64,000 nt of DNA from Candidatus Latescibacterota bacterium (GTDB lineage Bacteria > Latescibacterota > UBA2968 > GCA-2709665). Positions within the stretch are counted from its first letter, which is position 1. Each line of letters opens with the position of its first letter. Below are positions 22,751 to 48,562 of this stretch, piece after piece. The position numbers and the translations under genes are program-made. The notes under the pieces were generated by a model. That model was not told the DNA's origin and did no database searches. It was given only the letters and a program-made list of their open reading frames with translations. Location of the stretch: assembly GCA_965219455.1 (NCBI GenBank), contig OZ244744.1, positions 5,408,001 through 5,472,000 of the forward strand. The letters run 5' to 3'.

Positions 22751-22920
22751 GATTCGACCGCGAGCATCCGGACACCCCGATGCCAGAGAGCGCCGATAAG
22801 TCAATCCAGGCCAGTGACGTCAATACGCCCGGCCCCTTGTTGAAATCCGGTTGCTGCATTTCGCGGCCACAAATTGGAAACCCGGTGGCCCGCTTCAGGA
22901 GCACACAGGGAGATGTACTG

Positions 22921-24168
22921 ATGCAACAACCCGACGTCCGGCGACGCATGCGGGTTCGGCAAACGGATTGGGGCGACGCTGTGCGTATCGATCTCAATCA
23001 ACTGGGCGCGCGGTTGCCATCGCAGGGAATGCAGGGCGCGACATGGTCGGAAGCAACCAGCGAGGCATTGCGGGACGAATGGTCGGAATCCCAGAACGAG
23101 GCGCTTTGCGACACGATGGCGGAGGTCGCCGCCAGATGGGGCGGGACCTTCGATTCGTTTGCTGAGTGGACGGTTTTGCACAACAAGCTGTACGACGGCA
23201 CCCACATGCGCGATGTGCGCCGGGCGCGGTTCAGCCACGGGTACCGCGCGGCGATCACGACACTCGGCTGGGCGCATCCTGAGACCAGACTTTCCACGTG
23301 TATTCAGGCAGTGGGTTATGTTCCGAAAGCCAAGGTGACGTTCGAGCAGGCCATGTGGCGGCCGGAATCACTGTACAATACTGAGTTTATGGCGCTTGCG
23401 CCTGCCGTGGTGACGCGGTTCGGCGGTGGCCGGCACGTCCACTTGTCGGGCGTTGTCGCGTGGGACGAGGAGATAAATCCGCAATTCGAAGGACAGCCGG
23501 AACGTCAGGTTTCCCGCGTGTTCGACCTCATTGAGGACGTCTTCCAGGAGGCGGGAGGATCGCTGGCCGACGTTGTGCGACTCCGCCCATTCGCTCACTG
23601 TACGAGGATTGCGAGACTCATCCGAGCGGAGGTCAGCCGCCGCTGGGCGGGCCATCCACGGCCCGTGGTGATGATGTCGGACAGCCGGCGCTTTGGCGAT
23701 CCCCCAAGGCTGTATGCGGAAATTCAGGTCATGGGGGTCATGTCGGACGGCCATAGTGGTGTGCGGCACTCGGAAATGGATCTTCCTGCCGGGATTCCTG
23801 ATGAGGGCGCCACGCGTATTCGCTTCAGTCGGGCTCGTGATTGGGAACTGATCCAGGTAGGCGAACTGCGGGCGCCGCCGGGTACGGACCCGAACCGGGA
23901 GGCCGAGCACGTCACCGGACAGATGGCCGCGGCCCTCGAACGAGTATCGCTTACGCGGAGCGATGTCTGTTTGACATTCGCCTACGTCAGTTCAGCGGAA
24001 GCTGCCACAGCTTTCCAGGAAGCCGTGACCCAGGCGGCGCCGATGGACACAGTGCACGTGTTGCCCTGTCCCGCAATGCCCGAACTGGAGGGACGACGTA
24101 TCAAGGTGGAGATGACGGCCAGAAGACGCCTGGCGCCGGTATCGAGGACGGGTTCCGTGCGCCCCTGA
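22921..24168 (+). CDS. Multi-domain RidA/YjgF-like protein
   Basis: VHLSGVVA..QVSRVFDLIEDVFQEAGGSLADVVRL..YAEIQV, with similar degenerate units before and after; ATG 22921 after GGGAG. Confidence 0.65.
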   Translation: MQQPDVRRRMRVRQTDWGDAVRIDLNQLGARLPSQGMQGATWSEATSEALRDEWSESQNEALCDTMAEVAARWGGTFDSFAEWTVLHNKLYDGTHMRDVRRARFSHGYRAAITTLGWAHPETRLSTCIQAVGYVPKAKVTFEQAMWRPESLYNTEFMALAPAVVTRFGGGRHVHLSGVVAWDEEINPQFEGQPERQVSRVFDLIEDVFQEAGGSLADVVRLRPFAHCTRIARLIRAEVSRRWAGHPRPVVMMSDSRRFGDPPRLYAEIQVMGVMSDGHSGVRHSEMDLPAGIPDEGATRIRFSRARDWELIQVGELRAPPGTDPNREAEHVTGQMAAALERVSLTRSDVCLTFAYVSSAEAATAFQEAVTQAAPMDTVHVLPCPAMPELEGRRIKVEMTARRRLAPVSRTGSVRP

Positions 24169-24294
24169 CGGTATCGGTTCCGTAGGGTCGTACAAGACAC
24201 GATTCTCGCGAACCATCCTGGAACGTTCTTCACCACAGACTGGTCTAATGCATAGAGTGCTGCATACCATCTGAACCCCCATAAGGGTCTGAAA

Positions 24295-25185
24295 ATGCGT
24301 ATAATGGCGGCGGGTTTGACGAAATTCTATCCGAAGGGGACCGTGCCTGCGCTGGATAGCGTCGACCTGGAGATCGGTCAGGGGACATTCGGGCTCCTGG
24401 GTCCGAACGGTGCGGGAAAAACCACGCTCATCAAGATTCTCTCAACCCAGATGGCGCCAACCACCGGGCAGGTAAGGATCGGTGCGTGGGATCTGCAGCG
24501 GAATCGTTCCGAAGTGCGTCGAAGGCTGGGTTATCTTCCTCAACACTTCGGGGCGTATCCGCAACTGACGGCGTGGGAGTTTCTGGATTATATGGACCGG
24601 CTGGCGGTCGGGCGGCGTCGGAGCGGGAGAAAGGCGCGGGTGCGGGATGCGTTGGAGAACGTGGGGCTCTACGATGTGCGCAACCGGCGGACCGGCACGT
24701 ATTCCGGCGGAATGATGCGGCGGCTCGGCATTGCGCAGGCCATCGTCGGTGATCCTGAAATCCTGGTTGTGGACGAGCCCACGGTGGGCCTGGATCCTGA
24801 AGAACGCATACGCTTCAGGGGGATCCTCGCCCGGTTGAGTCGAGACAGGGTCATCTTGATTTCCACCCATATTGTGGGTGATATTTCGAGTACCTGCGAT
24901 GATCTGGCCGTGCTGAATGCCGGACGGATCGTCTACAGGGGTTCGCCAGCGGCGTTAGTTGCTCGCGCGAATGGCAAGACCTGGCGCGTACAGGCGGACG
25001 ACGCCGGATTCGAGACAATCTCCAAACGGTTTCTGGTCGTGACGGTTGCCGTGGACGGTGGCCGGATGGATCTTCGGATCGTGGGCGATGGCCAACCACC
25101 CGCCAACGCGGAACCGGTTTCACCGAATCTTGAAGATGCGTATGTCTATTTTATGGGTAGTGAGAATCTGGAAAGGGCGGCGTAA
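24295..25185 (+). CDS. ABC exporter ATP-binding protein
   Basis: GPNGAGKTT, YSGGM, VVDEPT, STH. Confidence 0.95.
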   Translation: MRIMAAGLTKFYPKGTVPALDSVDLEIGQGTFGLLGPNGAGKTTLIKILSTQMAPTTGQVRIGAWDLQRNRSEVRRRLGYLPQHFGAYPQLTAWEFLDYMDRLAVGRRRSGRKARVRDALENVGLYDVRNRRTGTYSGGMMRRLGIAQAIVGDPEILVVDEPTVGLDPEERIRFRGILARLSRDRVILISTHIVGDISSTCDDLAVLNAGRIVYRGSPAALVARANGKTWRVQADDAGFETISKRFLVVTVAVDGGRMDLRIVGDGQPPANAEPVSPNLEDAYVYFMGSENLERAA

Positions 25186-25197
25186 GTCGCATTGAGC

Positions 25198-28100
25198 ATG
25201 AATTCGGCTTTCACCATATTGTCGGTCGCCAGATACGAACGCAAATTGCTGATGCGGACGATCAGATTTCGCATTCTGGGCGGTATCGGCGTACTTATCC
25301 CCGTTGTTCTGGGCGTGGGCCTGGCCATCGCGGAAGCCCGAGGCGTTGAATTCGAGTCTGTCAGCGGAATCGGCGCCTATATGCCCTTTTTCGTCTACAG
25401 TTTCCTGCAGACCGTCGTGATTGCGTTTATCGTCGGAGATTTCCGCGCCGGCGATGAGCGCGCAGGAATCTACGAGGTGGTTGCGGCCCGGCCGCTGTCC
25501 ACGGCCGAATTGGTCATGGGCAAATACCTGGGTGTTCTGGGTGCTCTCATTACGCTGAGCCTGGTTGTGCTGGTGCTCAGCCTGGGGGTACACGCGGCCA
25601 AGATCAGTATTACCGGTGCGCCGTTTGCCATTCGACCCTATCTGGCGTACTTGCTACTGCTGAACCTTCCGGGGCTCGTTTATATGTCCGCCCTTACGTT
25701 TTTTCTTGGTGCGGTGTTGCGTCGACAGGCTGCAGTGACGGTGCTGACCATTGCTTACGTCCTGGTTGTGCTTTTGTTTCTGGGAAGCCGATACGGCGGT
25801 ATTTACGATTTCGGTGCATTTTTCGCCCCCGTGTTCTATTCGGATATGCTCGGTCTTGGCGATATCCAACGTGTCGTGGAAATCCGATTTTTCTATATGA
25901 TGGCAGCCCTGTTTTTCTTCGGTTTGTCAATCGACCGGTATCCGCGCCTGCCGCAGTCCCGGCCCTGGCGCAGGTTCGGCCGATGTCTGACCGCCGGCGG
26001 TTTCGTCGCCGCGCTGGGCGTGTTCCTGTATATGGAGAGCCGGGACGCGGCCGATCTCGAATACAGGTCGGCACAGTTGGAAGTTCAGGAAAGATATGCC
26101 GAACAGCCGGCCGCTGCCGTAACCCATTACGCGCTGGACCTGGACCTGGCGACAGACAAGGCGCCACTGCGGGGCACGGCGGTTCTGAAAGTCCTGAACC
26201 CTCATCCCGTGCCGCTGGATACCCTCGTTTTCTCTCTCAACCCTGGATTGAAATTGCGGTCTGTGGGCACACAACAGGGAGGAGGCGTTACTGTCAGATG
26301 GCGGCGCGAATATTCTACCGTGCGGGTCGCGCGACCACTCCAACCCGATAGCCTGGCGACACTGGTGTTTGTGTACGACGGTTCGATCGACCGCAGCGGA
26401 TTCGATCTGAGGCGTCATCCGGACGCAAGGCGTTTGCAGAAAAGGCGCGCCGGGCCGGGAAGAAAAGGTGATCTGACCGCCTGGATTCGCCGCAATTCCG
26501 TATTCCTGCCGCCACGCAGCAGATGGTATCCCTCACCCGGCGTGGACTACGGGCATCAGGACGGAAAACCCCTTTCCTTCGCCACCGCAGATCTCAATAT
26601 TTCACTTCCCGCCGGGCTGGAAGTTGTGACCCAGGGTGTGCCGGTGAACCGGAAACCAATGGGCGGACGGGAGACGCATACATGGAAAGTGGAACGCCCT
26701 GTACCTGTTCTTTCGCTCAACGCGGGCGTCTATCGTGTCTATCAGGCGGAAATCCATGATATCCAATGCGCCATTTACGTGCATCCGGCCCACGCCAGAC
26801 AGGTCACCTTCTTCGAAGACGCGAAGGACGATGCCCTCAATACACTCGGCGAAATCCTGGATAGTGTTGAGCAGGAAACCAGCCTGGCCTATCCCTACCA
26901 ACGCCTATCGGTCGTTGAGGTGCCATTCCAGGTACAATGGTATTACGACGGATGGGAGGAAGCCGGTGGATTGGTGCAGCCCGGTGTGCTGATGCTGGAA
27001 GAGGACGTCCTGATGCGGTTGAGGTTACGGCAGCGGTTGAAGTGGATGCAGCGACGGCAGCGGCGAAACGACGACCCTGCGAGAATCAAACGGGATTTGC
27101 TGGTCAGAACGATGCTGAATACGTTTCTGGCGCAGGAATCGTCTCAAAGTGGAATATACCGGAGTCCCGTTGCGCAACTCTGGTCGTTCAACAAGGGATT
27201 CGAAGGCGAGCACTATTCCCTGCTGAAACGCGGTATGCCTGTCTATATGCAGAAACATCTCCTTACCAATCTGCAACAGACATTCTATTCGCGGCGGGGG
27301 CGCTTCCGGGGGCGGTTCCGGCGTAGCAGGGGCGCACGCGGCGTCTCCTGGGATACGGTAACGGCCAGGATGCGGCAGCGTTCCTTTTCGGAACTGGACC
27401 CGAATGACGATGCGGAACTCTACCGGGCGGTCGTCGATGCCAAGGGCGCCTCCATGTTCGGCATGATGCAGGCTGTGGTTGGAGACGAGGCATTCAGGGA
27501 CGTGGTAAGCGGATTCGAGGAAGCGAATCGGCATGCGGGTGTCGACTTCGCTTCGTTTGAGCGGGCGGCTGTGGGAGATTCCTCGCGCCAGGTGAACAAA
27601 CCCAACCTGAATCGCCTGGTCCGCGACTGGCTGCACGGCACCCAGGTTCCGGGGTACACACTGACACGGGCAAAAGCATATAAAGCGGACGACGGGTGGG
27701 GTATGATGACGTACCAGGTCATCGTACGGATCCGTAACGGTGAGTCGGGTCGCGGGTTCGTCCAGATTCGAGCGATGGGTGCCGAGGACGAGGCGGTAAA
27801 GGGAGTCGAGATAGAGGGAGGGCAGGAAGTCGAGGTGGGGTTGATCCTCTGGGAGCGGCCCTCAAGGATAAGCGTCGAGCCCTTTTTTTCACGCAACCGG
27901 CGCGTCCTGATGGCGCCGCTGCGCATACCCGAGCAGCCGATGGACGGATCCGCCACGACCTACGTGAGGGAGGTTGCCCCGGATGAGACCGGATTGACCG
28001 AGATAATCGTTGACAACGATGATGAAGGCTTCGAGATGCCGGTCCGCAGGGTGCGGCGTTATCTTCGGCCGCAGTTGAAGGGCGACAACTGGCAGGAAAG

Positions 28101-28560
28101 GCAGATGCCGTTTTCCTTCGGCCGGTATGAGAGCAACTTCCGGTGGAAGAAACCCGGCGACGGCGCGCAACCGGCCGTCTGGACCGCCAGGTTGCCCCAC
28201 AGCGGGGATTACGATGTTTACTATTATTTCCTTTCCCACAGATTCTCCAGGCGTCTTCGCATGGCATCGGAATTCAATCTGGCCGTTTACCACGGTGGCG
28301 AGGTGGATACACTGGCGGTCGAAGCACACAAACTGAAGGCGGGCTGGAACGTCCTCGGACGTTACCGGTTCGAGGGTGGGGAATTGGCACGTGTCGAATT
28401 GTCCGACCGCGCCAACGGGCGGCTGTACGCCGACGCAGTGCGCTGGAGGTACGTAGACCCTGACCATCCGGAGGACGTATATGAAGAGGAACTTCCCAAC
28501 TGGAACTTCGGCCGCGGCCGGCGCGGTGGGCGCGGACAAAGCCGCGGAGGACGATGGTAA
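25198..28560 (+). CDS. ABC-2 type permease fused to an M1-aminopeptidase-like ectodomain and a C-terminal beta-sandwich
   Basis: About 7 N-terminal TM helices; HYALDL, LNPGL, WYP, YPY..L.VVEVP, KG; no HEXXH seen; C-terminal IIVDNDD...YADAVRW. Confidence 0.75.
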   Translation: MNSAFTILSVARYERKLLMRTIRFRILGGIGVLIPVVLGVGLAIAEARGVEFESVSGIGAYMPFFVYSFLQTVVIAFIVGDFRAGDERAGIYEVVAARPLSTAELVMGKYLGVLGALITLSLVVLVLSLGVHAAKISITGAPFAIRPYLAYLLLLNLPGLVYMSALTFFLGAVLRRQAAVTVLTIAYVLVVLLFLGSRYGGIYDFGAFFAPVFYSDMLGLGDIQRVVEIRFFYMMAALFFFGLSIDRYPRLPQSRPWRRFGRCLTAGGFVAALGVFLYMESRDAADLEYRSAQLEVQERYAEQPAAAVTHYALDLDLATDKAPLRGTAVLKVLNPHPVPLDTLVFSLNPGLKLRSVGTQQGGGVTVRWRREYSTVRVARPLQPDSLATLVFVYDGSIDRSGFDLRRHPDARRLQKRRAGPGRKGDLTAWIRRNSVFLPPRSRWYPSPGVDYGHQDGKPLSFATADLNISLPAGLEVVTQGVPVNRKPMGGRETHTWKVERPVPVLSLNAGVYRVYQAEIHDIQCAIYVHPAHARQVTFFEDAKDDALNTLGEILDSVEQETSLAYPYQRLSVVEVPFQVQWYYDGWEEAGGLVQPGVLMLEEDVLMRLRLRQRLKWMQRRQRRNDDPARIKRDLLVRTMLNTFLAQESSQSGIYRSPVAQLWSFNKGFEGEHYSLLKRGMPVYMQKHLLTNLQQTFYSRRGRFRGRFRRSRGARGVSWDTVTARMRQRSFSELDPNDDAELYRAVVDAKGASMFGMMQAVVGDEAFRDVVSGFEEANRHAGVDFASFERAAVGDSSRQVNKPNLNRLVRDWLHGTQVPGYTLTRAKAYKADDGWGMMTYQVIVRIRNGESGRGFVQIRAMGAEDEAVKGVEIEGGQEVEVGLILWERPSRISVEPFFSRNRRVLMAPLRIPEQPMDGSATTYVREVAPDETGLTEIIVDNDDEGFEMPVRRVRRYLRPQLKGDNWQERQMPFSFGRYESNFRWKKPGDGAQPAVWTARLPHSGDYDVYYYFLSHRFSRRLRMASEFNLAVYHGGEVDTLAVEAHKLKAGWNVLGRYRFEGGELARVELSDRANGRLYADAVRWRYVDPDHPEDVYEEELPNWNFGRGRRGGRGQSRGGRW

Positions 28561-28573
28561 TTAATTATGTAAC

Positions 28574-28589
28574 AAGGATATATATCCTT
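28574..28589. promoter_or_regulatory. Perfect 16-bp palindrome AAGGATATATATCCTT
   Basis: Self-complementary; lies in the short AT-rich gap before the MFP gene. Confidence 0.4.
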
Positions 28590-28604
28590 TTAGCGAGGTG
28601 CGTT

Positions 28605-29684
28605 TTGAATCGACGACTCACTGAATTCTACATGCTATTCATCGGTATTTCTTCGCTGTCGGGCTGCGGCGGGCAAACCGAACAGCGGTCCGTCGATCTG
28701 ACCGTCCCCGTTACGGTTCAGGCGGTACGGCTGGACACTATGGAAGCGACGGTGGGGGCCACGGGCACGCTCCGGTCCTCTAAAGAAGCTCGAATTCTAA
28801 CCGAGGTCGAGGGTATTCTTCGATTTGTCGCACGGGACGGCGGGGGAAGGCCGGCGGAGGGTATGCGGGTAACCCGAAACCAGGAAATCGCCCGTCTGGT
28901 GAACAAGGAACTCGTAGTGAATGCCCGCATTGAATCCCGGTCGCTTGCCAGGTCCGCTGCGAAGCGAACGCTTCGTGAACATGAAGTACTGGTTGAACGC
29001 AAGCTGGGTACGGAGAAAGATCTCGACGAAGCACGCCGCGCACTTGCCGAGGCCGAATCAAATTATGAAGACGCCCTCGTTCAGATCGCCAAGACGACGA
29101 TTCGTACACCAATCACCGGCTTTCTAACGGGATTGGCCGACATTACCGACGGTACACTCGTAGAAGCCCGTACGACCATTGCGACGGTGATGGATTACAG
29201 CCGTGTGTTCGTCGACCTTAAGATACCGAACGCCCATATCTCTTCGGTTTCGCCGGGTCAGGTTGTGCGTGTGGAGAACTATGCCCTGCCCAACCGGTTG
29301 TTTCTGGGGACCATCAAGGTGGTGGATCCGGCGATCGATCCGACGACCCGTACGTTCCGGGTGGTGGGGGTTGTGAAGAATCCGGACCTGATATTGCGGC
29401 CGGGCATGTTCGTGAAAGCGGAGATTGTCACGGAGTCACACGAAAACGCGGTGGTGATCCCGCGCCTCTTTGTCCTGACCCGCCAGAATCGCAAGGTGGT
29501 GTTCGTTGAAGAGGAGGGGAGGGCGCAGATGCGCAACGTGGTATTGGGGTTGGAGGGGTCGGAGCGGGTCGAGATTCTCGAGGGGCTTGAACCGGGGGAG
29601 CGCCTCATTACCAGCAACTACGAGACCCTGCGGCCCCGTACGCGCGTACGGGTAACCGGCGAGGGAGTGCCGGGGCAGCGATAG
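28605..29684 (+). CDS. RND membrane fusion (periplasmic adaptor) lipoprotein
   Basis: Lipobox LSGC; IRTPITG, PAIDPTTRT, LRPGMFV, GLEPGE; TTG start after GAGGTG. Confidence 0.92.
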   Translation: MNRRLTEFYMLFIGISSLSGCGGQTEQRSVDLTVPVTVQAVRLDTMEATVGATGTLRSSKEARILTEVEGILRFVARDGGGRPAEGMRVTRNQEIARLVNKELVVNARIESRSLARSAAKRTLREHEVLVERKLGTEKDLDEARRALAEAESNYEDALVQIAKTTIRTPITGFLTGLADITDGTLVEARTTIATVMDYSRVFVDLKIPNAHISSVSPGQVVRVENYALPNRLFLGTIKVVDPAIDPTTRTFRVVGVVKNPDLILRPGMFVKAEIVTESHENAVVIPRLFVLTRQNRKVVFVEEEGRAQMRNVVLGLEGSERVEILEGLEPGERLITSNYETLRPRTRVRVTGEGVPGQR

Positions 29685-29920
29685 TTCCAGGGGCCGGATG
29701 TACCCGATATGTGGACCCGCAACGAATTCGAAAGATCCCGTCCGCGCCGATATATCAACAGAAAAAAACCTGTGAGTTCTCGTTTGGACCCCTCTGGGGC
29801 CCAGGGACTGCGTATGGGCCTTCCGGAGGGTTATTTTTGGCCCAACGCGTCGGGGCTCACATTCGTATGAGTATCCGGCAATAAAACACCTGGATAAACT
29901 TCTATCAAAGAGCTGATACG

Positions 29921-32900
29921 ATGTCTTTGCCCGAATTCTCGATAAAATATCCGGTGACGGTTGCAATGGCCACGCTGGCGGTCGCGCTCCTGGGTTGGAT
30001 CTCGCTGGCGCGGCTGGACGTGGATCTGTTGCCCGACCTGCGTTCTCCCGTGATCACTGTCGACCTGCGTTTTCCGGGTAAGACTCCCAGGGAAATGGAG
30101 GAGCGTTATGCGCAGCGGCTCGAAGGGGATATCGGTACGGTGCGCCATGTCAAGCGGGTACATTCAGTGTCTCGCTCCGGGCAGGCCGTGGTGATCGCGG
30201 AATTTGAATGGGACGCGGATATGGATTTCGCCCTGCTCGACGTGCAAAAAAAAGTGGCGCGTTACGCAGCGGATCCGGATATCACGAGTCTGGACGTGAC
30301 TCAGGAAGACCCTCAGGCGCTGCCGGTGATGCGCCTGGCCGTCTCCGGAGCGGATTGGCAGGATCCGGACGAATTGCTGGGCAGCGTGGAAACGATAATA
30401 AGGCCGAAACTTGAAGGGTTCTCCGGGGTGGCTTCGGTTGAAATCGAAGGGGGGGCGGAGAAGGAGATCCATGTCACGCTGGATTCCTATCTTCTGCAGG
30501 CCTTTGGTGTCAATTCCGAAACGGTCGTCTCGCGGATTCGTGAGGCGAATTCGGATGTCTCCGGGGGAACGTTGAAGGACGGACAACGTTCCTTTCTGGT
30601 CAAGGGTCTGGGACGTCTGACCGGTTTGCAGGACGTGAACAACCTGGTTGTGGGTGAGCGCGGAGGCGGAACGGCGAACGGCCAGGAAGACGCCCCAACC
30701 CAGCGGGTGCCCGTCACGGTTAGCGACGTGGGTACCGTGGCTCTACGATACAAGGAAAGGGAAACCATCGTGCGGCTCGACGGCATGGAGTGCGTCGGGC
30801 TTTCCGTTTACAAAGAAGCGGGTGCGAATACCTCGTCGGTGGCCAAAGGGGTTCTTCAAGAACTGGGAAGCCTTGAGTCCGACCTGGCCGGCATTCGGTT
30901 TACGGTGGTGGAAAATCAGGCACGTTTTGTTGAACGCGCGGTAAACGAAGTGGAAGAAGCGGCTGTTTTCGGTGCGTTACTGGCCGTGGGCGTGCTGCTG
31001 GCTGCGCTACGGCAGTGGACAGCCACACTGGTGATTGGACTTGCCATTCCGATTTCCGTACTGGCCACCTTCACGCTGATGTATTTCCAGGGGTTGACGT
31101 TGAATGTGATGACCCTGGGCGGGTTGGCGTTGGGGGCAGGCATGCTGGTTGATAACGCCATTGTCGTGATCGAAAACATCTACCGGCACCTCGAACGGGG
31201 GGAAACGGCCGCCGAAGCCTCCATCAGAGGCGCGAGCGAGGTCGGGGTCGCCATTCTGGCCTCCACGCTTACCACGGTGTCCGTGTTTCTGCCCATCGTC
31301 TATCTTCAAGGGTTGGCTGGCGAACTCTTCAAGGAGCAGGCCTGGACGGTAGCGTTTTCGCTGATTTCGTCTCTTGCGGTGGCCATGACTGTGGTTCCGA
31401 TGTTGACCGCCCGGCTTTTCGGGCGGTATCCTCGCCGATCCGCAAGAGGCGCCGGCTCGGCCACGTTCAGGCGCTTTCTGGGTGGATCACTCAGCCACAA
31501 GGGCCGCACGTTGGCGGTGCTTGCCGCTTGTCTTCTGGCCGCCGTCTACATGGCCGGGTCGATCCATACGTCTTTTATACCCGGGGAAGACGAGGGTGTG
31601 CTTCACGTGGACCTCTCGCTCCCGGAGGGCACGAGGCTCGAGTCAACGGACCGGGTGGCGAGACGCGTTGCCGCAATCACACAGGCGGTCACCGGAGAGG
31701 AAGCCCGTCACATTTACCTCCGCGTGGGAAACGATCCGAACCGGTTGACGGCCGTGGGAGAACCCACCGGCCCGAACAGGGCCGAGCTGACGGTGGTGCT
31801 GGTGCAGCGAACGGACCGGCGCAGTCTCTCCGAACTCACCGCCGCGCTGGATACGGCCATTCGGGAAGTGCCGGATATTAAGGTAAACTATCGCCTTCAA
31901 AAGGCTGCATTAGAAGGACTTATCGGTGGAGATGCCGCACCGGTTCAAGTCGAGGTCAGCGGAGAGAACCTGGATTTACTCCGGGAACTGACGGCAGATC
32001 TGAAACGGCGCATGGAAGCGTTACCCACGGTGTATAATGTACGAACCAGCTTCCAGGATGGTCAGCCCGAAGTGGACGTGGTGTTGCGGCCGGACGTCAC
32101 GGCGGCGTTTGGTCTCACGTCACAGAACCTCGTACGCGAACTCGAGCGCAGACTGGCAGGTGAGGAAGCCGGGGAACTCTCCAAAGACCAGCGGGCGCGA
32201 ACCATCCGGGTGGGTTTCGAAGATGTTGATCTTCGCGAGTTGAAACACACAAGAATTGACGGTCCCGACGGGGCGATGCTCACACTGGGAGATCTCGCCG
32301 ACTTGCGCGTTGTCCAGGGGCCGCGGGAGATTTTGCGTGACGGTCAGCGCCGGGTGGGTAGGGTATCCGCTTATCTGACCGACGGGGTGGTGTTGAGCCA
32401 GGCGGCAACGCAGATCAGACAGGCGGTGGGACAGATGGCCGTTCCGAACGGATATCGGGTGATCGTTACAGGCGAGGAACGGGAGCGGGCCGAGTCATTT
32501 GGCGGCCTGCAATTCGCCCTTTTGCTGTCGGTGGTGCTCGTATATATGGTAATGGCTTCGCTTTTTGAGTCTTTGCTCCATCCGTTTACCGTGATGCTGA
32601 CAGTGCCGCTGGCAGGCATCGGGGTGGTGTTCGCATTCTGGAGCCTTGGAGAAGCGTTTGGCGTAATGGCATTCATCGGAGCAATCATGCTGGGAGGAAT
32701 CGCGGTGAACGACGCCATCATTATGGTGGACCGCATCAACCAGCTGCGGCGCGATACGGACGACTTGAGACAGGCGGTTCTCCAGGGTGCGCAGGATCGG
32801 CTGCGTCCGATCCTGATGACCAGCGCCACAACCATTCTTGCGCTGTTACCCATGGCGGTGGGGGTCGGCGAAGGCGCCCGTTTGCGGACGCCGATGGCGG

Positions 32901-33004
32901 TGGCGGTTATCGGCGGGCTGGTGACGTCCACGCTGATGACCCTTGTGGTGATTCCTGTGGTTTACGAATTGATCGAACGGCTCAGAATCAGGAGAGCGTC
33001 GTGA
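29921..33004 (+). CDS. RND (AcrB/NolG-like) permease
   Basis: PVTVAM, DLLP, LNVMTLGGLALGAGMLVDNAIVV, RLRPILMT. Confidence 0.95.
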   Translation: MSLPEFSIKYPVTVAMATLAVALLGWISLARLDVDLLPDLRSPVITVDLRFPGKTPREMEERYAQRLEGDIGTVRHVKRVHSVSRSGQAVVIAEFEWDADMDFALLDVQKKVARYAADPDITSLDVTQEDPQALPVMRLAVSGADWQDPDELLGSVETIIRPKLEGFSGVASVEIEGGAEKEIHVTLDSYLLQAFGVNSETVVSRIREANSDVSGGTLKDGQRSFLVKGLGRLTGLQDVNNLVVGERGGGTANGQEDAPTQRVPVTVSDVGTVALRYKERETIVRLDGMECVGLSVYKEAGANTSSVAKGVLQELGSLESDLAGIRFTVVENQARFVERAVNEVEEAAVFGALLAVGVLLAALRQWTATLVIGLAIPISVLATFTLMYFQGLTLNVMTLGGLALGAGMLVDNAIVVIENIYRHLERGETAAEASIRGASEVGVAILASTLTTVSVFLPIVYLQGLAGELFKEQAWTVAFSLISSLAVAMTVVPMLTARLFGRYPRRSARGAGSATFRRFLGGSLSHKGRTLAVLAACLLAAVYMAGSIHTSFIPGEDEGVLHVDLSLPEGTRLESTDRVARRVAAITQAVTGEEARHIYLRVGNDPNRLTAVGEPTGPNRAELTVVLVQRTDRRSLSELTAALDTAIREVPDIKVNYRLQKAALEGLIGGDAAPVQVEVSGENLDLLRELTADLKRRMEALPTVYNVRTSFQDGQPEVDVVLRPDVTAAFGLTSQNLVRELERRLAGEEAGELSKDQRARTIRVGFEDVDLRELKHTRIDGPDGAMLTLGDLADLRVVQGPREILRDGQRRVGRVSAYLTDGVVLSQAATQIRQAVGQMAVPNGYRVIVTGEERERAESFGGLQFALLLSVVLVYMVMASLFESLLHPFTVMLTVPLAGIGVVFAFWSLGEAFGVMAFIGAIMLGGIAVNDAIIMVDRINQLRRDTDDLRQAVLQGAQDRLRPILMTSATTILALLPMAVGVGEGARLRTPMAVAVIGGLVTSTLMTLVVIPVVYELIERLRIRRAS

Positions 33005-36000
33005 TTCTCCCCGATCTTGCGGTACGGCGGCCAGTGACGACGTCCATGTTTTTCGCTGCGTTCGCCATATTGGGTGTCGTATCGTGGACCCGGCTTCCGG
33101 TACAGCTCTTTCCCGAGCTGATTTTTCCCGAAGTTTTCGTTACGCTCTCGCTGCCGGGGGCCGCTCCGGAACAGGTTGAAAGGGACCTGGTGATTCCCGC
33201 CGAAGGGGAGATCGGCAAGCTGGACGGGGTCCGGGAGATGGAGTCGTTTGCTATGGCCAATATGGGTGGCATAAGAATTTCCTATGCCCCGGACGTGGAT
33301 ATGAAATTCGCCCTGCTTCAGCTGCAAAGCAACCTGAACAGGTTGCAGCCGACGCTGCCCGAACGTACGCAAACGGATGTACAGAGGTTCGATTCTACAG
33401 ATCTGAGCAGCAGTATCATGGAGCTTCACGTGCTTGCCGATTGGGATCTGAACCAGCTACGGGAGTTCACGGAGGAAAAAATCCGTCCTGAATTGGAGTC
33501 TATCGACGGTGTTGTGAATGTGTCCGTAATGGGCGGGCGGCGCAGCGCCGTGGAAATCGTCCTGGATCCGTTGCTGCTGGAGGCGCATGGCCTTTCCATC
33601 GCACAGGTACGGGGACGCATGAACAACTATAACCGGCGACGTGAGTACCTCGGCCGCGTATACGACGGGAATCGGGCTTACTCGGTGAGCATTCAGGGAC
33701 AGTTTACCGACCTGCGCCAGATTCGGGATCTTGTGTTGAACGCGGACGGTACACTCAGACTTGGCGACGTTTCCCGGGTGGGATACGGACTTCAGGAACA
33801 GGCCGATCGCCACAGAGTCAACGGCAAACCATCGGTGGGGGTCCGAGTTCAGAAGGACGACGACGCGAATCTGGTCGAGGTGGCCACCGCTGTAGAAGCG
33901 GCCATTGGACAGCTGAATCGGAATTTCAAGAGCGAGGGTGTGGAATTGGGCGTGAGTTCGTCTCAGGCGGACCTGATGACCGGGGCGCTTTCCACCCTGA
34001 AACAGGCGGCCATTGTCGGCGCTGTCCTCGGACTGATCGTGCTCTTTCTGTTTCTTCGGAACCTTCGTTTTGTCTCGGTCCTCCTTCTGGCCATTCCGGT
34101 TTCTCTCCTGATGACCTTTAATCTGATGTACCTGGGGGGACTATCCGTGAACGTCCTGTCGCTTTGCGGCCTGGCCCTCGCGATGGGAATGCTCGCGGAC
34201 AACGGCATCGTGGTGATGGAAAATATCTTCAAGCACTACGAGCGTGGAAAACCGCCGGCCCAGGCGGCGCGGGAGGGGACGGCCGAGGTTGGGCGCGCGG
34301 TGGTCGCGGCAACCGCCACCACCGTTACCGCTTTCCTGCCCGTTCTGTTTATCGAGAGCGACGCGAGGGACCTGCTGCGCGAACTGGCGTTGTCCATGGC
34401 GTTTCCACTTATGGCATCACTGCTGGTCGCGCTGACGCTTGTACCGGCCCTTGCCGTCCGCGCATTGAGCCGCGAGGTCCGGCAACCGCCTGACGTCCGC
34501 GGCTTACTCGAACAGTATACGCTACTGTTGAAGGCGGCTCTGCGGCACCGCGTGTCGGTCGCCATGTCAGTAGGGGGCGCGCTCGCGCTGACACTCGTCG
34601 TGGCCTTCTTCTTCCTGCTACAGCAGCAGGTACGGCGAGAGGAGACGCGATTTACGGTTTACGTGAACCTTCCGCAGGGGGCCACACTGGATGCCACCGA
34701 TGAGGTCGCTAAACAGGTGGAAGAATCTGTGAGGGACGTGCCCGGGCTGGACCGGTTTACGACGTCGGTTCAGGAGGCCGAGGCAAACGTTACCGTCCTG
34801 CTGGGAAAGCGTACTGACCGGCCGGGCGGCATCTCGCTGGATGAAATCAAAGAGCAACTCGACGAAAAACTGCAGAACGTGCAGGGCGGTGTGGTCGGAT
34901 ACGAGCCCAGGCCGCGGGCAGGGAGGGGCGGTCGCGGGCAGGGGATAGGGCAGCGTCGGAGGCGCAGTTCCGGTGGTTTCGATCTGACGGGGGCCACGCC
35001 GAACGAGCAGGCCGTGGTTCGAGGATACGATTTTACAATACTCACGATGATCGCCAACGACATGGTGTACCGCCTTGAGGAACTGGAGGAGGTGGATGCC
35101 AACAGCGTACGCGCTGACGCCGAACGGAGTTCGCCGGAGGTTCAGGTGATTCCCGATGCAGCGGCCCTGTTCGACCGGCGGCTCGGGGCACAGGAGGTAC
35201 TGGCTGCCATGGGAGACACCCGCTTTGACGGATTCCGCACCACCGTACCGTTTCTGCTGCCCGACGCAACCGAGGTACCCATCGAAGTGCGTACGATTGA
35301 AGAGGAGGACCGCGACCGCTACGGGCTGGCTGAATTCAAACGCTCCCGCATTCTCAACCAGGAGGGGCAGTACGTGTCTCTGGACGAAGTCGCGCGGGTT
35401 CGAACGGACGAGGGCAGAAGCAGCCTGTTGCGGACCGACCAGGCCCGTCGGATTGTGGTTTCCTACCAATTTCCTTCGGAAATTCTGGATTCACAGCCAC
35501 GGTTGGATGTTGCGAGACGGTCCGTGCGGACGACTCTGCAGGATATGGTGCTGCCGGAGGGCTATTCTATCGAGACAATCGAGGCGCAGGAAGAGACGAT
35601 TTACTATTGGATGATGGGAATTGCCGCGGTGCTCATCTACATGATTCTGGCCTCGCTGTTTGAATCTTTCGCGTCTCCGGTCATCATTCTATGTACGTTG
35701 CCGCCCGCGGCCATCGGCTCCTGTTGGGCGCTGATGGCGTCGGGCACGGGTCTGAGCCAGCAGGAGGGCCCCATGGCGCTTCTGGGCCTTATTGTCCTGC
35801 TGGGTATCGCCGTGAATAACGGAATCATCCTGATTGACGCGGTCGGCGTGCTCAGGTCCCGTTTCGGATATCGCAGGGAACGTGCTGTACTGACCGCGGC
35901 AAGGTCCCGAGTGCGACCCATATTGATGACGACGGCCACAACGCTTCTGGGCGTTCTTCCGCTCGCGCTGGAATTCGGTGGTGATTTTGAAATCTGGCCG

Positions 36001-37713
36001 CCGTTTGCAATCACCGTTCTGGGTGGCTTGTCGGTTTCCATGGTATCCACACTGATCCTGATTCCGGTCGTTTACATGGGGCTGGATCAGATCGGAGCCT
36101 GGCTGGCCGACATGGGGTTTGTCGGCGTCACGCTCTCCCTGCTGGCTACCGCTGCGGCCGGCTACGGCGTATATACCCGATATGAAAGCATTTTCTGGGC
36201 AGCCCTGTCGATATTGCCCATCTGGTGCGCGTTCCTGGCGGCGGTGTGGATCGTCCTGAAGGTGCATCGCGCTCGAGTCGACGCCCGTCGGGCGTCGAGC
36301 GCCGTGTATTCCATTCAACTCAGGAATCTGACCAAAATCTACGGCGCACCCGGGCGTTTTGGCCGGGAGTGGGCGCGCAACGAGCGTCGGAGAGGGCGGT
36401 TAATGGAATTGGGATTGGATCCGCAGGACCGCAAAGCGGTTCGTGATGCTCTCCTCTGGAAGCTGCCGTTGCTCGCCCTGTTGGTGTTTTTTACCTCCTA
36501 TTTCGAGGACGAAATCTGGATCTATCTGCACGGGTTGGCGCTTGCATTCATGCTGGCACACGTGGGTCGACGTTTCGGCGACCTCTGGCGAGGGCGTTTG
36601 TCGGCGCCGGTGGACCGCATCGGAGACTTTCTGCACAAAGTCGCTCTACCACTGGGGTTTATGGCTTATGCGCACTGGCGGCTGAACTTGCTTTCCGTCA
36701 CCATTGCAACCTTCGGATTGTGGGCCGCCTATCGTCTGGCGCGATGGCTCGCGGACAAGGTGCGGACTGGCGAGATAAATCTCGATGACCTGCCCGGGCG
36801 TTTTGCACGGGCGCGCCGATGGTTTTATCGGATGCCATCGGCCCTGCCCCTTATCGGTGTTCCCCGCCCGGAATTTCGGGCGCTGGCTGGCGTCAACCTG
36901 GAAATCGGCAGGGGAATGTTCGGTCTTTTGGGCCCCAATGGCGCCGGTAAGACCACGTTGATGCGTATTCTTTGTCGGGTCCTCGAACCCAGCTACGGGT
37001 CGATTCAGATCGATGGTCGAAACATCTTGAGGAAGGGTTCGATTCATGGTCTGATCGGGTACCTTCCGCAGCACTTCGGCAACTACGAACATCTCTCCGC
37101 ATACGAATTTCTGGAATACCGGGCGCTGCTGGAAGGCTATAAGGACCGCAAGATTCGCGAGAGGCGGGTGATCGAATCTCTGGAACAGGTAAATCTGATC
37201 GAACGCAAGGAAGATCCGATCGGGTCTTTCTCAGGGGGAATGAAGCAGCGACTTGGCATCGCACAGACCCTCTTGCACACCCCGATGATCGTGGTGGTGG
37301 ACGAGCCCACTGCGGGGCTCGATCCGCTGGAGCGTATCCGGTTTCGCAACCTGCTCGCCCGCTTGAGTCAGGATCGGATCGTCATTTTTTCCACGCACAT
37401 TGTGGAAGATATCTCCGGAAGCTGCAATCGACTGGCGGTACTGGATCAGGGGCGTCTTCTGTATACGGGAACGCCGGAGGAGATGAGAAATCTGGCGGAG
37501 GGACGGGTTTGGGACGCGGTGGTTTCGGAACAGCACTTTTCCGAATTGGAAGAAAAACTGAAGCTCATATCACACCAGCGAGCGTCAGACGGCGTCCGAA
37601 TGCGATTCTTGTCCGAACGTCCACCGGTTGGCTTCGGCGCGCAGAGCGTGGATCCAACCCTGGAAGACGCGTATCTCTACCTTCTTGGCGGAGGAGAGGA
37701 ACAGCCGTGCTGA
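33001..37713 (+). CDS. RND permease fused to extra TM helices and a C-terminal ABC ATPase
   Basis: Continuous 1570-aa ORF: RND motifs (GMLADNGIVV, RVRPILMT), then GPNGAGKTT, FSGGMKQR, VVDEPT, STH. Confidence 0.92.
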   Translation: MILPDLAVRRPVTTSMFFAAFAILGVVSWTRLPVQLFPELIFPEVFVTLSLPGAAPEQVERDLVIPAEGEIGKLDGVREMESFAMANMGGIRISYAPDVDMKFALLQLQSNLNRLQPTLPERTQTDVQRFDSTDLSSSIMELHVLADWDLNQLREFTEEKIRPELESIDGVVNVSVMGGRRSAVEIVLDPLLLEAHGLSIAQVRGRMNNYNRRREYLGRVYDGNRAYSVSIQGQFTDLRQIRDLVLNADGTLRLGDVSRVGYGLQEQADRHRVNGKPSVGVRVQKDDDANLVEVATAVEAAIGQLNRNFKSEGVELGVSSSQADLMTGALSTLKQAAIVGAVLGLIVLFLFLRNLRFVSVLLLAIPVSLLMTFNLMYLGGLSVNVLSLCGLALAMGMLADNGIVVMENIFKHYERGKPPAQAAREGTAEVGRAVVAATATTVTAFLPVLFIESDARDLLRELALSMAFPLMASLLVALTLVPALAVRALSREVRQPPDVRGLLEQYTLLLKAALRHRVSVAMSVGGALALTLVVAFFFLLQQQVRREETRFTVYVNLPQGATLDATDEVAKQVEESVRDVPGLDRFTTSVQEAEANVTVLLGKRTDRPGGISLDEIKEQLDEKLQNVQGGVVGYEPRPRAGRGGRGQGIGQRRRRSSGGFDLTGATPNEQAVVRGYDFTILTMIANDMVYRLEELEEVDANSVRADAERSSPEVQVIPDAAALFDRRLGAQEVLAAMGDTRFDGFRTTVPFLLPDATEVPIEVRTIEEEDRDRYGLAEFKRSRILNQEGQYVSLDEVARVRTDEGRSSLLRTDQARRIVVSYQFPSEILDSQPRLDVARRSVRTTLQDMVLPEGYSIETIEAQEETIYYWMMGIAAVLIYMILASLFESFASPVIILCTLPPAAIGSCWALMASGTGLSQQEGPMALLGLIVLLGIAVNNGIILIDAVGVLRSRFGYRRERAVLTAARSRVRPILMTTATTLLGVLPLALEFGGDFEIWPPFAITVLGGLSVSMVSTLILIPVVYMGLDQIGAWLADMGFVGVTLSLLATAAAGYGVYTRYESIFWAALSILPIWCAFLAAVWIVLKVHRARVDARRASSAVYSIQLRNLTKIYGAPGRFGREWARNERRRGRLMELGLDPQDRKAVRDALLWKLPLLALLVFFTSYFEDEIWIYLHGLALAFMLAHVGRRFGDLWRGRLSAPVDRIGDFLHKVALPLGFMAYAHWRLNLLSVTIATFGLWAAYRLARWLADKVRTGEINLDDLPGRFARARRWFYRMPSALPLIGVPRPEFRALAGVNLEIGRGMFGLLGPNGAGKTTLMRILCRVLEPSYGSIQIDGRNILRKGSIHGLIGYLPQHFGNYEHLSAYEFLEYRALLEGYKDRKIRERRVIESLEQVNLIERKEDPIGSFSGGMKQRLGIAQTLLHTPMIVVVDEPTAGLDPLERIRFRNLLARLSQDRIVIFSTHIVEDISGSCNRLAVLDQGRLLYTGTPEEMRNLAEGRVWDAVVSEQHFSELEEKLKLISHQRASDGVRMRFLSERPPVGFGAQSVDPTLEDAYLYLLGGGEEQPC

Positions 37714-38429
37714 ACTGGCGAGAATTGCTGCTGACCACGTGGCGGCTCTATCGGCTTAGCTGCAGGATCATATTTCACAGGAAGTTGATGTTCATGGCCA
37801 TTGGTGTTCTTGTCTATTACGCCGCCATGTATGCATTTGCAGTCTGGCGCCCCAGCGAAGGATTCGGCGTATCGCGAGCGCTCAATGTTCTGGTTGAAAT
37901 TCCCGGCATCGCCCTGGCCATTTATCTGACGATGGATCTCGTTGCAGGCGAACGCGATAGAAATACACTGGAGACGCTATTCAGTACAACCTCGTCCCAC
38001 TATAAAATATGGGCGATTCGGATGGTCGGAGTTTATCTGGTGTTGGCGGGAACCCTGATGGGAATGACGGTTGCCGCCTATTTCTTATTTGCGGAATTGC
38101 CGATATTCCGGGGTGGGTTGAATGCGTTTCTGCCAGCGTGTTTCACCGCGGGGCTTACGTTTTACTTTTCCGTTCTCTGTCGAAGCGGCAATGCGGCCGC
38201 GATGCTCGCTACCGGAGTGATGGGCCTGACTCTGTTCATCTCGGAATCCATGCCAGATTCTCCATTCACGCTTTTTCTGAGTACGTTTGATCCCCCGGTG
38301 GGTATGGAAGGCACCCTGTGGGGCGACCAGGTGCTGCTGAATCGCCTGGCTGTACTGATGCTGTCGGGATTGCTGCTTTTTATGGGCCTGCGCAAGATGG
38401 AAGCCAGGGAGCGATTGGTATCTTCGTAG
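37707..38429 (+). CDS. ABC-2 type permease
   Basis: About 6 TM helices; ERDRNTLETLFST motif; GTG 37707 overlaps the upstream gene. Confidence 0.85.
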   Translation: MLNWRELLLTTWRLYRLSCRIIFHRKLMFMAIGVLVYYAAMYAFAVWRPSEGFGVSRALNVLVEIPGIALAIYLTMDLVAGERDRNTLETLFSTTSSHYKIWAIRMVGVYLVLAGTLMGMTVAAYFLFAELPIFRGGLNAFLPACFTAGLTFYFSVLCRSGNAAAMLATGVMGLTLFISESMPDSPFTLFLSTFDPPVGMEGTLWGDQVLLNRLAVLMLSGLLLFMGLRKMEARERLVSS

Positions 38430-38614
38430 CGGTATGTGATTCCGCCCCGGATGAACCGATCGTACGCCACACGGCCACGGATTCCGAATCCGGTCGACGA
38501 CACGGCATTATCAGGTCGTCGTCACGGGCGGAATCTGCGGAGCGCGCCACTTTAGGTTGGACATGTCACCGATCTGATGCGCGAGACACCGGCCGGGATT
38601 CTCGCCCGCCGATG

Positions 38615-39757: not shown

Positions 39758-40108
39758 ATCAGGAGATTTCCCGGCTGCCGGATTCACTGGATGGAGGACG
39801 CGAGCCTGCCCACGATGGGCGAATACCTGCCGGCTCGAAATATGGGCAATCTTTCACAATTCGTCAAGACCGCAGCGAATCATTCCCGCTGGGCCGTTGA
39901 ATGTCGATCGGGGTCTCCGGCGGCCTATTCATCGCGCGATCCGGTCGGAGGCACAAGGCGTTGGATTCAGACGTCCTGCAAGACCACGCTTCGGATCTCG
40001 CCTTTCGCTTGGTCAGTCCAGGGTAAATACATATATTTAGAGACATTCAGGGCAACCGGAAATGGACATCTGTTTGTCTGACGCTGTTTATGGACGGAGG
40101 AGAGCGAT

Positions 40109-44328: not shown

Positions 44329-44472
44329 AAATATAACAGATTCCAGACCAAAGGTTTAATGACAGATATTCATGTAATTCTGGAGGCTAAACTGAGGCCA
44401 GGAAGGACAGTACGATAGGAGAATCAAGGTAAGACATGCTCAACACTGGATCCAACTATACCAGGAATACAC

Positions 44473-44852
44473 CATGCCCTGGCCAAGGTTCCCCTCCTCG
44501 TCATTGATGACTTCGGACTCCGACCCCTTGGCCCGCCGCACGAGGACGACTTCCATGACCTCGTCGCCGAACGCTATGAACGCGCTGCCACTATCGTCAC
44601 CTCCAACCTCGACTTCAACGAGTGGGGCAACGCCTTCTCCAATCGACTCCTCGGCGCCGCAACACTCGACCGACTGCGACACGCCGCCTACCGCATCATC
44701 CTCGACGGACACAGCTATCGGTCTCCGCGTCCTCTACATACACCACACAAAATCACCCTTGCAAAGGAGGTCACCAAAACCTAATTACATGTCACGTCTG
44801 AGACCCCCTTTTTCACCCTCGTTCACTGGCGCCTTTACACCGATCATTGACA
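44473..44852 (+). mobile_element. istB: IS21 family remnant: 3' part of istB plus right end
   Basis: Start-less frame ALAKVPLLVIDDFG..ERYER..IVTSNL..EW..ATLDRLRH..LDGHSYR (stop 44782-44784); terminus ...CCGATCATTGACA. Confidence 0.85.
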
Positions 44853-47094: not shown

Positions 47095-47138
47095 AACGAA
47101 ACCCTCTCGCGAAAGAGAACACAAATGAATCCGGCACC

Positions 47139-48525: not shown

Positions 48526-48562
48526 TCCGGCACCCGGTAAGAAGGTGTCGGGCGGCATGGGC

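Follow-up and report, generated by a model that had tools for sequence, protein, structure and literature searches.

Resistance-nodulation-division (RND) permeases, which are driven by protons, and ATP-binding cassette (ABC) transporters, which are driven by ATP, are taught as two alternative ways of powering a tripartite efflux pump from the inner membrane. Can the two be built into a single machine? The question is raised by a six-gene cassette in a 64,000-nucleotide stretch of a Candidatus Latescibacterota genome (contig OZ244744.1, positions 5,408,001 to 5,472,000; the whole stretch is hereafter called the window). The cassette comprises a stand-alone ABC ATPase (g1), an ABC-2-type permease with a large C-terminal extension (g2), a membrane fusion protein (MFP) that would serve as periplasmic adaptor (g3), an RND permease (g4), an RND permease fused to an ABC ATPase (g5) and a small ABC-2-type permease (g6). 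A first-pass annotation of this DNA had described six co-oriented genes, and all six open reading frames (ORFs) are present on the + strand at 24295-38429, at the positions and in the order described there (Table 1). In this cassette one polypeptide joins RND and ABC, and the join is conserved over several phyla within a fixed set of genes, which also brings a second ABC module bearing a peptidase-fold ectodomain that lacks the zinc motif. As far as our literature search reached, these are known parts in an undescribed combination. We consider it fairly probable that ATP-driven ABC-2 modules feed a proton-driven, heteromeric RND pump, the whole forming one conserved envelope export system.

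The fusion gene g5 is a single uninterrupted ORF whose product matches the RND family PF00873 at 606.5 bits (profile positions 3-1019 of 1021) and the ABC ATPase family PF00005 at 94.8 bits (residues 1297-1438). Past transmembrane helix 12 (TM12) of the RND body, the sequence continues with a pair of hydrophobic helices and a basic loop. The strand SIQLRNLTKIY comes next, and a charged helix and four further hydrophobic helices separate it from the remainder of the nucleotide-binding domain (NBD). At the position of this strand g1 reads GLTKFY-PKGTVPAL, with GLTKFY about 5 residues ahead of the next strand, and this alignment places a g5 insertion of ~175 residues exactly between NBD strands 1 and 2. 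The charged loops would put both pieces of the g5 NBD in the cytoplasm, a topology that is self-consistent under the positive-inside rule. The same elements are seen in an AlphaFold (AF2) model of residues 1035-1570 built from 24 sequences (pLDDT 83.1, pTM 0.65), in which model helices 5-27 and 30-63 correspond to the two helices that follow TM12, the detached strand to residues 70-80, and helices 110-133, 137-162, 168-194 and 197-221 to the four-helix insertion. In the 24 sequences, whose identity falls as low as 35 %, W32 of the first two helices and K78 and Y80 of the detached strand are invariant, and W119, P122, Y133, W139, P183 and W207 of the four-helix insertion are conserved. The catalytic motifs of the NBD are intact (Walker A GPNGAGKT, Q-loop, FSGGMKQR, VVVDEPT and STH). 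When the C-terminal model was searched with Foldseek, matches were restricted to the NBD and fell among type-V/ABC-2-class ATPases, namely TM_1403 (E 3.2e-23), NosF, ABCA1/4/7 and LptB. The six extra helices found no convincing Foldseek match, the only long alignments being to ABCA transporters at root-mean-square deviations of 17-22 Å.

To judge how widely this arrangement is conserved, we examined homologues of g5 residues 1035-1570. Each of the 120 listed has a PF00873 and a PF00005 match, with lengths mostly in the range of 1540-1650 amino acids (aa). Among the listed matches, the fusion occurs in Latescibacterota, Gemmatimonadota, Acidobacteriota, KSB1, Krumholzibacteria and Bacteroidota (Marinifilum). 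Database entries name it only as "efflux RND transporter permease subunit", as "ATP-binding cassette domain-containing protein" or by the two COG-style names together. In a search for naturally split forms, 120 shorter g5-like matches were listed; the majority are labelled partial or stem from contigs of 1-10 kb, and a few lie in long contigs (P0129, P0133, P0137 and P0206). Thirteen loci are close to that of the window, with g5 C-terminal parts 82-87 % identical to it. We also fetched 20 diverged loci from the phylum of the window, 19 of which reach far enough upstream (one, L026, is cut). The order g1-g2-(outer-membrane factor, OMF)-g3-g4-g5-g6 was found in 19 of these 19 and in one Bacteroidota locus, that is, in 20 of 20, although the lowest identities are 34 % for g5, 25 % for g2 and 21-29 % for g6; retention of gene order down to 21-36 % identity rules out chance. 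An even sample of 301 Bacteroidota genomes yielded the fusion in a single genome (G312), where it is accompanied by the whole cassette in a seven-gene form (locus L046).

The g2 ectodomain and the fusion also keep company across genomes. In 168 genomes of the phylum of the window, the full g5 C-terminal module, counted at a best E <= 1e-100, is present in 82, and the g2 ectodomain is likewise present in 82. Both occur in 78 genomes and neither in 82, with the fusion alone in four (G044, G061, G127 and G147) and g2 alone in another four (G067, G154, G156 and G162). The eight discordant genomes are all fragmented, each assembly consisting of 150-820 contigs and being 58-90 % complete. Related genomes are not independent, and the counts therefore stand without a statistic. 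The presence of the cassette is patchy even within one genus, where 7 of 31 genomes have the fusion and 6 of 31 have g2, and the set seems to have been gained and lost together. The first-pass annotation had proposed that the ABC and RND parts belong to one machine and had suggested a synteny search as a check. The cassette order in the 19 phylum loci and the Bacteroidota genome, the covalent joining of NBD and RND in more than 100 listed homologues and the co-distribution of g2 with the fusion support the part of that proposal by which the ABC and RND parts belong together.

These data bear on the possibility that the cassette groups pumps that are inherited together but function independently. 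In that case the g5/g6 exporter would be fused to the RND pump only to share its location or regulation, and g1/g2 would be a transporter of its own. Such an arrangement would sit well with the finding of every module alone somewhere, with the terminator-like hairpin that lies between g3 and g4 in the clade of the window, and with the variable position of the OMF gene. It would not, however, lead one to expect a fusion retained over at least six named phyla and down to 35 % identity, a fixed order in which distant relatives carry an OMF gene between the two halves, or gains and losses that are nearly all-or-none, as in the genus above. We regard independent pumps as quite improbable.

The OMF is the one component of a tripartite pump that the locus lacks. 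PF02321, the OMF family, has no match in the 64-kb window. The genome is a single 5.84-Mb contig and contains five PF02321 genes, all at least 500 kb from the window. In distant loci, a TolC-like OMF gene of 1.5 kb was found by tblastn between g2 and g3 in 12 of 12 complete cases (PF02321 E 1.2e-48 in L028 and 2.4e-40 in L024), and the tail of such a gene is visible in the cut locus L026; the Bacteroidota cassette locus also has an OMF inside it. The clade nearer to the window (7 loci, 51-73 % identity) has no OMF between g2 and g3, and two loci (L034 and L032) carry a different OMF directly after g6 (PF02321 E 9e-72). Neither the locus in the window nor its 13 close relatives contain an OMF gene. 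The statement of the first-pass annotation that there is no OMF thus holds for this locus and fails for its relatives, 13 diverged phylum loci and the Bacteroidota locus having the OMF inside the cassette and two having it after g6. The OMF within the cassette of distant relatives indicates that the machine was ancestrally tripartite and that its absence here is a local loss. The hairpin region of the g3 adaptor has the same length in the OMF-less clade as in OMF-bearing relatives. This pattern suggests that the lineage of the window borrows a duct in trans. The best candidate by sequence is the gene at ~795.8 kb (C1:795793-797061), the closest homologue in this genome of the L034-type OMF (45 % identity, E 2e-88), which adjoins another RND gene.

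How the two ATPases and two ABC-2 permeases may be paired was examined from their sequences, predicted structures and genomic contexts. The first-pass annotation had seen in them precisely the components of a heterodimeric ABC exporter, with NBDs in g1 and g5 and transmembrane domains (TMDs) in g2 and g6. If such an exporter were docked on the RND, the RND trimer would consist of a single g5 and two copies of g4. Pairs of an NBD and an ABC-2 TMD are of a textbook kind, and g6 lies directly after g5 in 22 of 22 diverged loci examined. By hydropathy g6 has five clear TM helices; its match to PF12679 reaches 21.6 bits against a cut-off of 27.2. Remote homology to the g2 TMD extends over its whole length (hhalign 89.6 %, E 1.9e-6, 219 columns). 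When g6 was modelled in complex with the C-terminal part of g5, the ipSAE was 0.65, against 0.00 for the best of three controls. In the calibration, the mark that this value passes was attained in 116 of 157 solved complexes and in 2 of 215 mismatched pairs; these counts are rough here, as our own alignments were used. The runs share at least 89 % of contacts, with partner pLDDT at least 74. In the model, g6 residues 6-24 and 85-96 contact NBD residues 288-349 (numbering of the g5 C-terminal model), and the docking is canonical, with the g6 N-terminal helix and a conserved coupling helix after TM2 (ERDRNTLE) set against the Q-loop and helical subdomain. Such a pass may reflect likeness to solved NBD/ABC-2 TMD structures and is not proof of binding. 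On this modelling, g6 is likely to be the membrane partner of the g5 NBD.

The other pair, g1 and g2, is a paralogue of this one. The g1 product matches PF00005 (E 6.9e-31), retains all catalytic motifs (Walker A, Q-loop, a YSGGM signature, Walker B with DE, and H-loop), is 46 % identical to the g5 NBD and shares with it a C-terminal beta domain. For both NBDs the best NCBIfam match is the DrrA subfamily (TIGR01188), at 194.8 bits for g1 and 175.6 for the g5 NBD, below the cut-off of 312.45. An identity as the gliding protein GldA (TIGR03522) was discarded, the two scores of 168.8 and 169.1 bits falling under the NCBIfam cut-off of 402.6. A tree of 47 NBDs separates those of g5 (100/99) from those of g1 (95/84), and the same two sub-clades recur within each group, which indicates that the duplication is older than the spread of the cassette.

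Several of these properties could be claimed for a heterodimer: the NBDs number exactly two, as do the single-TMD permeases, and they form paralogous pairs; the pairs have co-diverged since before the cassette radiated, and they are present or absent together (78 genomes with both and 82 with neither, of 168). Hetero-oligomeric exporters of the ABC-2 class also exist, and DrrABC is called a putative hetero-oligomeric complex in a passage of PMC11539658. Against a heterodimer, both NBD sites here are fully canonical, without the asymmetry that many heterodimeric ABC exporters show. The pairs are moreover separable, g1-g2 being duplicated as a unit that stands alone in G083 and G079, g5-g6 occurring alone in G169, and related pairs of NBD and M1-domain permease standing alone in Bacteroidota in both loci inspected (L051 in G265 and L053 in G413). 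Together with the predicted canonical docking of g6 on the g5 NBD, the separability of the pairs points to two paralogous NBD-TMD modules. The single heterodimer is not supported by the evidence, and we hold it to be unlikely, if with some chance left to it. As a separate observation, each of the L051 and L053 pairs adjoins a gene for a LytS-type histidine kinase, which recalls peptide-sensing ABC/two-component modules.

The g2 permease is distinguished by its ectodomain, which the first-pass annotation had missed, as it had the interruption of the g5 NBD by membrane helices and the conserved hairpin between g3 and g4, although its list of genes and parts was otherwise right. The hydropathy of g2 shows six TM helices at residues 28-247, a basic loop, a probable seventh TM helix and then ~830 residues, which by the positive-inside rule should be periplasmic. 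Among Pfam families, Golvesin_C passes at 57.1 bits, and two matches stay below their cut-offs, ABC2_membrane_3 (PF12698) at 27.8 bits (cut-off 31.6) and Peptidase_M1 (PF01433) at 24.2 (cut-off 27.7). An AF2 model of the ectodomain from 19 aligned sequences (pLDDT 80.4, pTM 0.75) found the aminopeptidase IRAP as its best Foldseek match in the Protein Data Bank (E 1.9e-22 over ~660 columns, TM-score 0.42), followed by ERAP1/2, PSA and APN. As modelled, the ectodomain has the multi-domain M1 fold, with the Golvesin_C domain C-terminal to it. An HExxH zinc site and a GxMEN exopeptidase motif are the hallmarks of M1 aminopeptidases. No HExxH motif was found in g2 of the window or in its 19 orthologues (the paired glutamate downstream lay outside this check), and no GxMEN motif was found in g2 of the window. 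Lacking the zinc motif, the domain is probably one for binding and not a peptidase; judged by its sequence, it most likely binds something without cleaving it. A Protein Atlas search with the ectodomain returned only Golvesin_C clusters, and the automatically assigned name of one, "xanthan lyase family", is a lead and no evidence for a polysaccharide substrate. The C-terminal tail of g2 is encoded by an Arg/Gly-rich low-complexity stretch at 28507-28557.

The RND core of the cassette draws on known families. The adaptor g3 matches TIGR01730 at 179.6 bits (cut-off 94.9; profile 1-321 of 322) and HlyD_D23 (E 1.5e-24), and has an LSGC lipobox. The g4 product matches PF00873 at 749.6 bits (profile positions 3-1020 of 1021). 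The arrangement of one adaptor gene followed by a pair of neighbouring RND genes (g3-g4-g5) was found in 21 of 21 cassette loci examined, with g4 missing from the Pseudomonadales g5-g6 locus. Both RND proteins remain below the 1250-bit cut-off of NF033617 (RND_permease_2), at 628.7 bits for g4 and 519.7 for g5. We discarded the idea that they are orthologues of MdtB and MdtC, the equivalog cut-offs being far from reached: g4 and g5 score 396.0 and 367.1 bits with the MdtC model (cut-off 1774) and 377.6 and 337.1 with the MdtB model (cut-off 1584). A Gly-rich insertion of the g5 porter domain is shared by all 21 g5 sequences compared, whereas AcrB, MdtB and g4 lack it. It aligns to AcrB residues 663-676, which we take to be part of the periplasmic cleft entrance.

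The first-pass annotation had pointed to DN in TM4 and N(D/N) in TM10 in both RND proteins, in place of the DD/K proton relay of AcrB, as a possible sign that the ABC module energises the RND, while cautioning that such variants also occur in ordinary RND proteins. A passage of the tripartite-pump review PMC8277102 names the AcrB relay residues as D407 and D408 (TM4), K940 (TM10), R971 and T978. We aligned 21 g4 and 21 g5 sequences with AcrB, MdtB and MdtC of E. coli. The motifs are as that annotation described them: D407, R971 and T978 are retained in 42 of 42 sequences, D408 and K940 are both replaced by N in all 42, so that the AcrB triad is absent, and position 941 is D in all g4 and N in all g5. 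The caution proved correct and the suggestion did not, since the same variants are found in unfused RND paralogues of this genome: none of eight has DD/K, and four have DN/NN, two DD/ND, one DP/NN and one is CusA-like. The variants are thus a trait of the lineage or subfamily and not of the fusion; they give no evidence that ATP replaces protons, and we dropped them as a mark of lost proton coupling. Given the residues that are kept and the variants shared with unfused paralogues, proton drive of g4 and g5 would need no special pleading. The eight paralogues lie at ~556k, 625k, 791k, 3584k, 3945k, 4908k, 5203k and 5808k of the genome (G000:C1), and four have no adjoining OMF gene.

Could ATP nevertheless act on the RND itself? 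In one such scheme, the fused NBDs would pass their closure on to the RND TM domain by way of the six extra helices, and this would replace or supplement proton drive. The covalent link, the conservation of W32, W119, P122, W139, P183 and W207 in the 24 sequences, which suggests specific packing and not a floppy tether, and the single TM4 Asp of g5, without the second Asp or the TM10 Lys, are all compatible with this. Set against them are the relay data just given (DN/NN in 4 of 8 unfused paralogues and DD/K in none; D407, R971 and T978 kept in 42 of 42), the dedicated g6 gene that follows g5 in all 22 loci and whose product is predicted to occupy the TMD-coupling groove of the NBD, and the mismatch between the symmetry of a trimer and that of a dimer. 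We consider an ATP-energised or ATP-gated RND highly improbable. A related proposal, which we rate as rather improbable, is that the six helices couple the ABC cycle mechanically to the RND: a pair of g5 NBDs (g4:g5 of 1:2) would gate or power the TM domain, or push a membrane-embedded substrate into the intramembrane entry groove of the RND, which would make the cassette a single supercomplex with dual energy (ATP and proton) and not pumps in series.

The reading that we favour, ABC-2 modules feeding an RND pump, would work as follows. g4 and the RND body of g5 would form a proton-driven RND core, probably heteromeric, served by the single lipoprotein adaptor g3. The g5 NBD would dimerise and, with g6, make up a type-V (ABC-2) exporter of the ordinary sort, held permanently on the RND by the fusion, and g1 and g2 would form a second, paralogous and co-inherited ABC-2 module with a ligand-binding ectodomain. 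The ATP-driven modules would take a substrate, amphipathic or peptide-like, out of the cytoplasm or the inner leaflet and deliver it to the periplasmic face, where the RND would capture it and expel it through the adaptor and an outer-membrane duct. The gene for this duct would have been lost from the cassette in the lineage of the window, and the duct would be supplied in trans.

A number of observations weigh against this reading. The hand-off of substrate from one module to the other is pure inference. RND proteins form trimers and NBDs form dimers, so that the stoichiometries do not match. In the complex model, none of the confident contacts of g6 involves the six extra helices. The cassette has no OMF in cis, and the cassette-type OMFs of L028 and L024 found no tblastn match at E <= 1e-3 in the genome or the 13 close loci. 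The second g1-g2 copies in G083 and G079, whose g1 genes are recent duplicates of cassette g1 in the NBD tree, have no RND or adaptor gene within 8-11 kb. In G169, a Pseudomonadales metagenome-assembled genome, a fusion of 1615 aa is followed by a g6-like gene, and the flanks examined (13 kb upstream, 2.5 kb downstream) contain none of g1, g2, g3, g4 or the OMF. Elsewhere that genome has at least six g2-like loci, with genes for ~1180-1225 aa, one of which adjoins a g1-like NBD (the minimal g5-g6 pair and the g2-like material are in L047 and contigs C19, C31, C32 and C3). The occurrence of modules alone indicates that coupling of g1-g2 to the pump is not obligatory. Finally, the hairpin between g3 and g4 may split g1-g3 from g4-g6 into separate transcripts.

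We compared the cassette with known systems. MdtABC-TolC and MuxABC-OpmB resemble it in having two adjacent, translationally coupled RND genes after one adaptor gene, and there too the OMF can be encoded elsewhere; both RND proteins here are full-length matches to PF00873, and the E. coli pair assembles as an MdtB2C heterotrimer. The cassette differs from these systems in the DN/N(D/N) relay in place of DD/K, in the fusion of an RND to an ABC ATPase and in its two ABC-2 modules, and its RND proteins are not MdtB/MdtC orthologues. MacAB-TolC likewise unites an ABC ATPase, an MFP and an OMF in one envelope-spanning system. According to a passage of PMC8277102, MacB is a permease of the FtsX type with four TM helices and an NBD at its N-terminus, whereas the permeases of the cassette are probably of the six-TM ABC-2 type and an RND is present. 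No FtsX/MacB family appears among the Pfam matches of the six proteins, and an identity as MacAB was abandoned because g3 scores 45.9 bits with the MacA model against an NCBIfam cut-off of 342.

The nearest published analogy that we found is in mycobacteria, where, according to a passage of PMC11539658, the ABC-2 exporter DrrABC and the RND protein MmpL7 are both involved in export of phthiocerol dimycocerosate (PDIM). In that passage, as here, an ABC-2-class exporter and an RND are involved, there for one envelope lipid; the proteins are, however, separate, and the RND is of the MmpL type without MFP or OMF. In the cassette, by contrast, an AcrB-type RND and the NBD form one covalent chain, and an adaptor and, ancestrally, a TolC-like duct are added. 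The Bacteroidota L051/L053 pairs are like g1-g2 in that an NBD of the same class is followed by a permease of ~1190 aa with a C-terminal M1 domain. They differ in that their M1 match passes the Pfam cut-off, no Golvesin_C is listed and no RND or MFP lies in the 9-13 kb loci; L053 shows two ABC-2 membrane domains and L051 one weak match, whereas in g2 of the window there is a single TMD, and the M1 fold lacks HExxH. Our literature search, which left subscription journals and supplements outside its scope, found no description of an RND-ABC fusion or of ABC-2/M1 permeases, and a term search of the first 300,000 characters of the review PMC8277102 gave no passage on such a fusion.

If the modules act in series, the cassette would be a hard-wired two-step route from cytoplasm to periplasm to the outside, of a kind until now inferred only from separate cooperating pumps, and the hand-off would become directly testable. 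If the ATPase instead acts on the RND itself, the mode of energy coupling would be new. Marinifilum species are among the source names of the fusion homologues; cultured Marinifilum strains are, we presume, available, and if so genetics and structural work would be feasible.

The coordinates of the genes and of the elements discussed above are collected in Table 1. Overlaps occur at three of the five junctions, by 7 nt at g2/g3, 4 nt at g4/g5 and 7 nt at g5/g6. The g2 ORF opens with TTG at 25192, and with its ATG at 25198 as the start it is spaced 12 nt from g1. The start codon of g6 is a GTG, downstream of a purine-rich GGAGGAGAGGA stretch.

Table 1. Genes of the RND-ABC cassette and elements within them, in window coordinates.
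Feature	Coordinates	Strand	Description
g1	24295..25185	+	Stand-alone ABC ATPase, 296 aa, DrrA/GldA-like class, C-terminal beta domain
g2	25198..28560	+	ABC-2 permease with M1-fold ectodomain, 1122 aa
g3	28554..29684	+	MFP periplasmic adaptor lipoprotein, 376 aa
Hairpin	29790..29838	+	Terminator-like, 14 pairs, followed by UUAUUUUU; inside the g3-g4 gap
g4	29921..33004	+	RND permease, 1027 aa; DN in TM4, ND in TM10
g5	33001..37713	+	1570 aa: RND (residues 1-~1030), six TM helices and ABC ATPase
G/R-rich insertion, g5 porter domain	34909..34980	+	g5 residues 637-660, ~24 residues, periplasmic
Two extra TM helices after RND TM12	36103..36291	+	g5 residues 1035-1097; from hydropathy and AF2
Detached first NBD beta-strand	36310..36342	+	g5 residues 1104-1114, SIQLRNLTKIY
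Four-helix membrane insertion within NBD	36430..36765	+	g5 residues 1144-1255
NBD core and C-terminal beta domain	36874..37710	+	g5 residues 1292-1570
g6	37707..38429	+	ABC-2-type permease, 240 aa

The 236-nt gap between g3 and g4 (29685-29920) contains a GC-rich hairpin of 14 pairs with a U-run that is conserved in 12 of 14 close loci, including that of the window. It folds at -28.8 kcal/mol, with a z-score of -0.33, and Rfam gave no match to the gap at E <= 1. The length of the gap is specific to the clade, distant relatives having 12-55 nt. A TATTTTTG stretch overlaps the U-run of the hairpin and resembles what we take to be the -7 element of Bacteroidota-type promoters. A scan of 23500-39500 for sigma-70 promoters and terminators found 5 promoter-like sites against 5.5 expected; it missed the hairpin, which is bulged.

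The neighbours of the cassette are not related to transport. Upstream lie genes for a thiamine pyrophosphate (TPP) enzyme, a DAO oxidoreductase and a RidA-like protein. The ORF at 22747-24168 (473 aa) has as its sole match a short RidA/L-PSP segment at residues 228-283. Homologues of this ORF stand upstream of the cassette in L035, as does a TPP-enzyme gene in L043, which indicates that they are part of an upstream context common to close relatives only. Downstream are genes for a CdaA-like cyclase on the opposite strand, a TPR protein and a PQQ/FG-GAP protein. The CdaA-like diadenylate cyclase (38615-39787, - strand) has a DAC domain and CdaA_N, together with a weak C-terminal YbbR-like match below the cut-off (E 6.6e-4), and may by its sequence be a CdaA-CdaR-type fusion. 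Farther along the window, G+C is 0.48-0.52 across 44001-52000, compared with 0.57-0.61 on both sides, and this stretch may be a foreign island.

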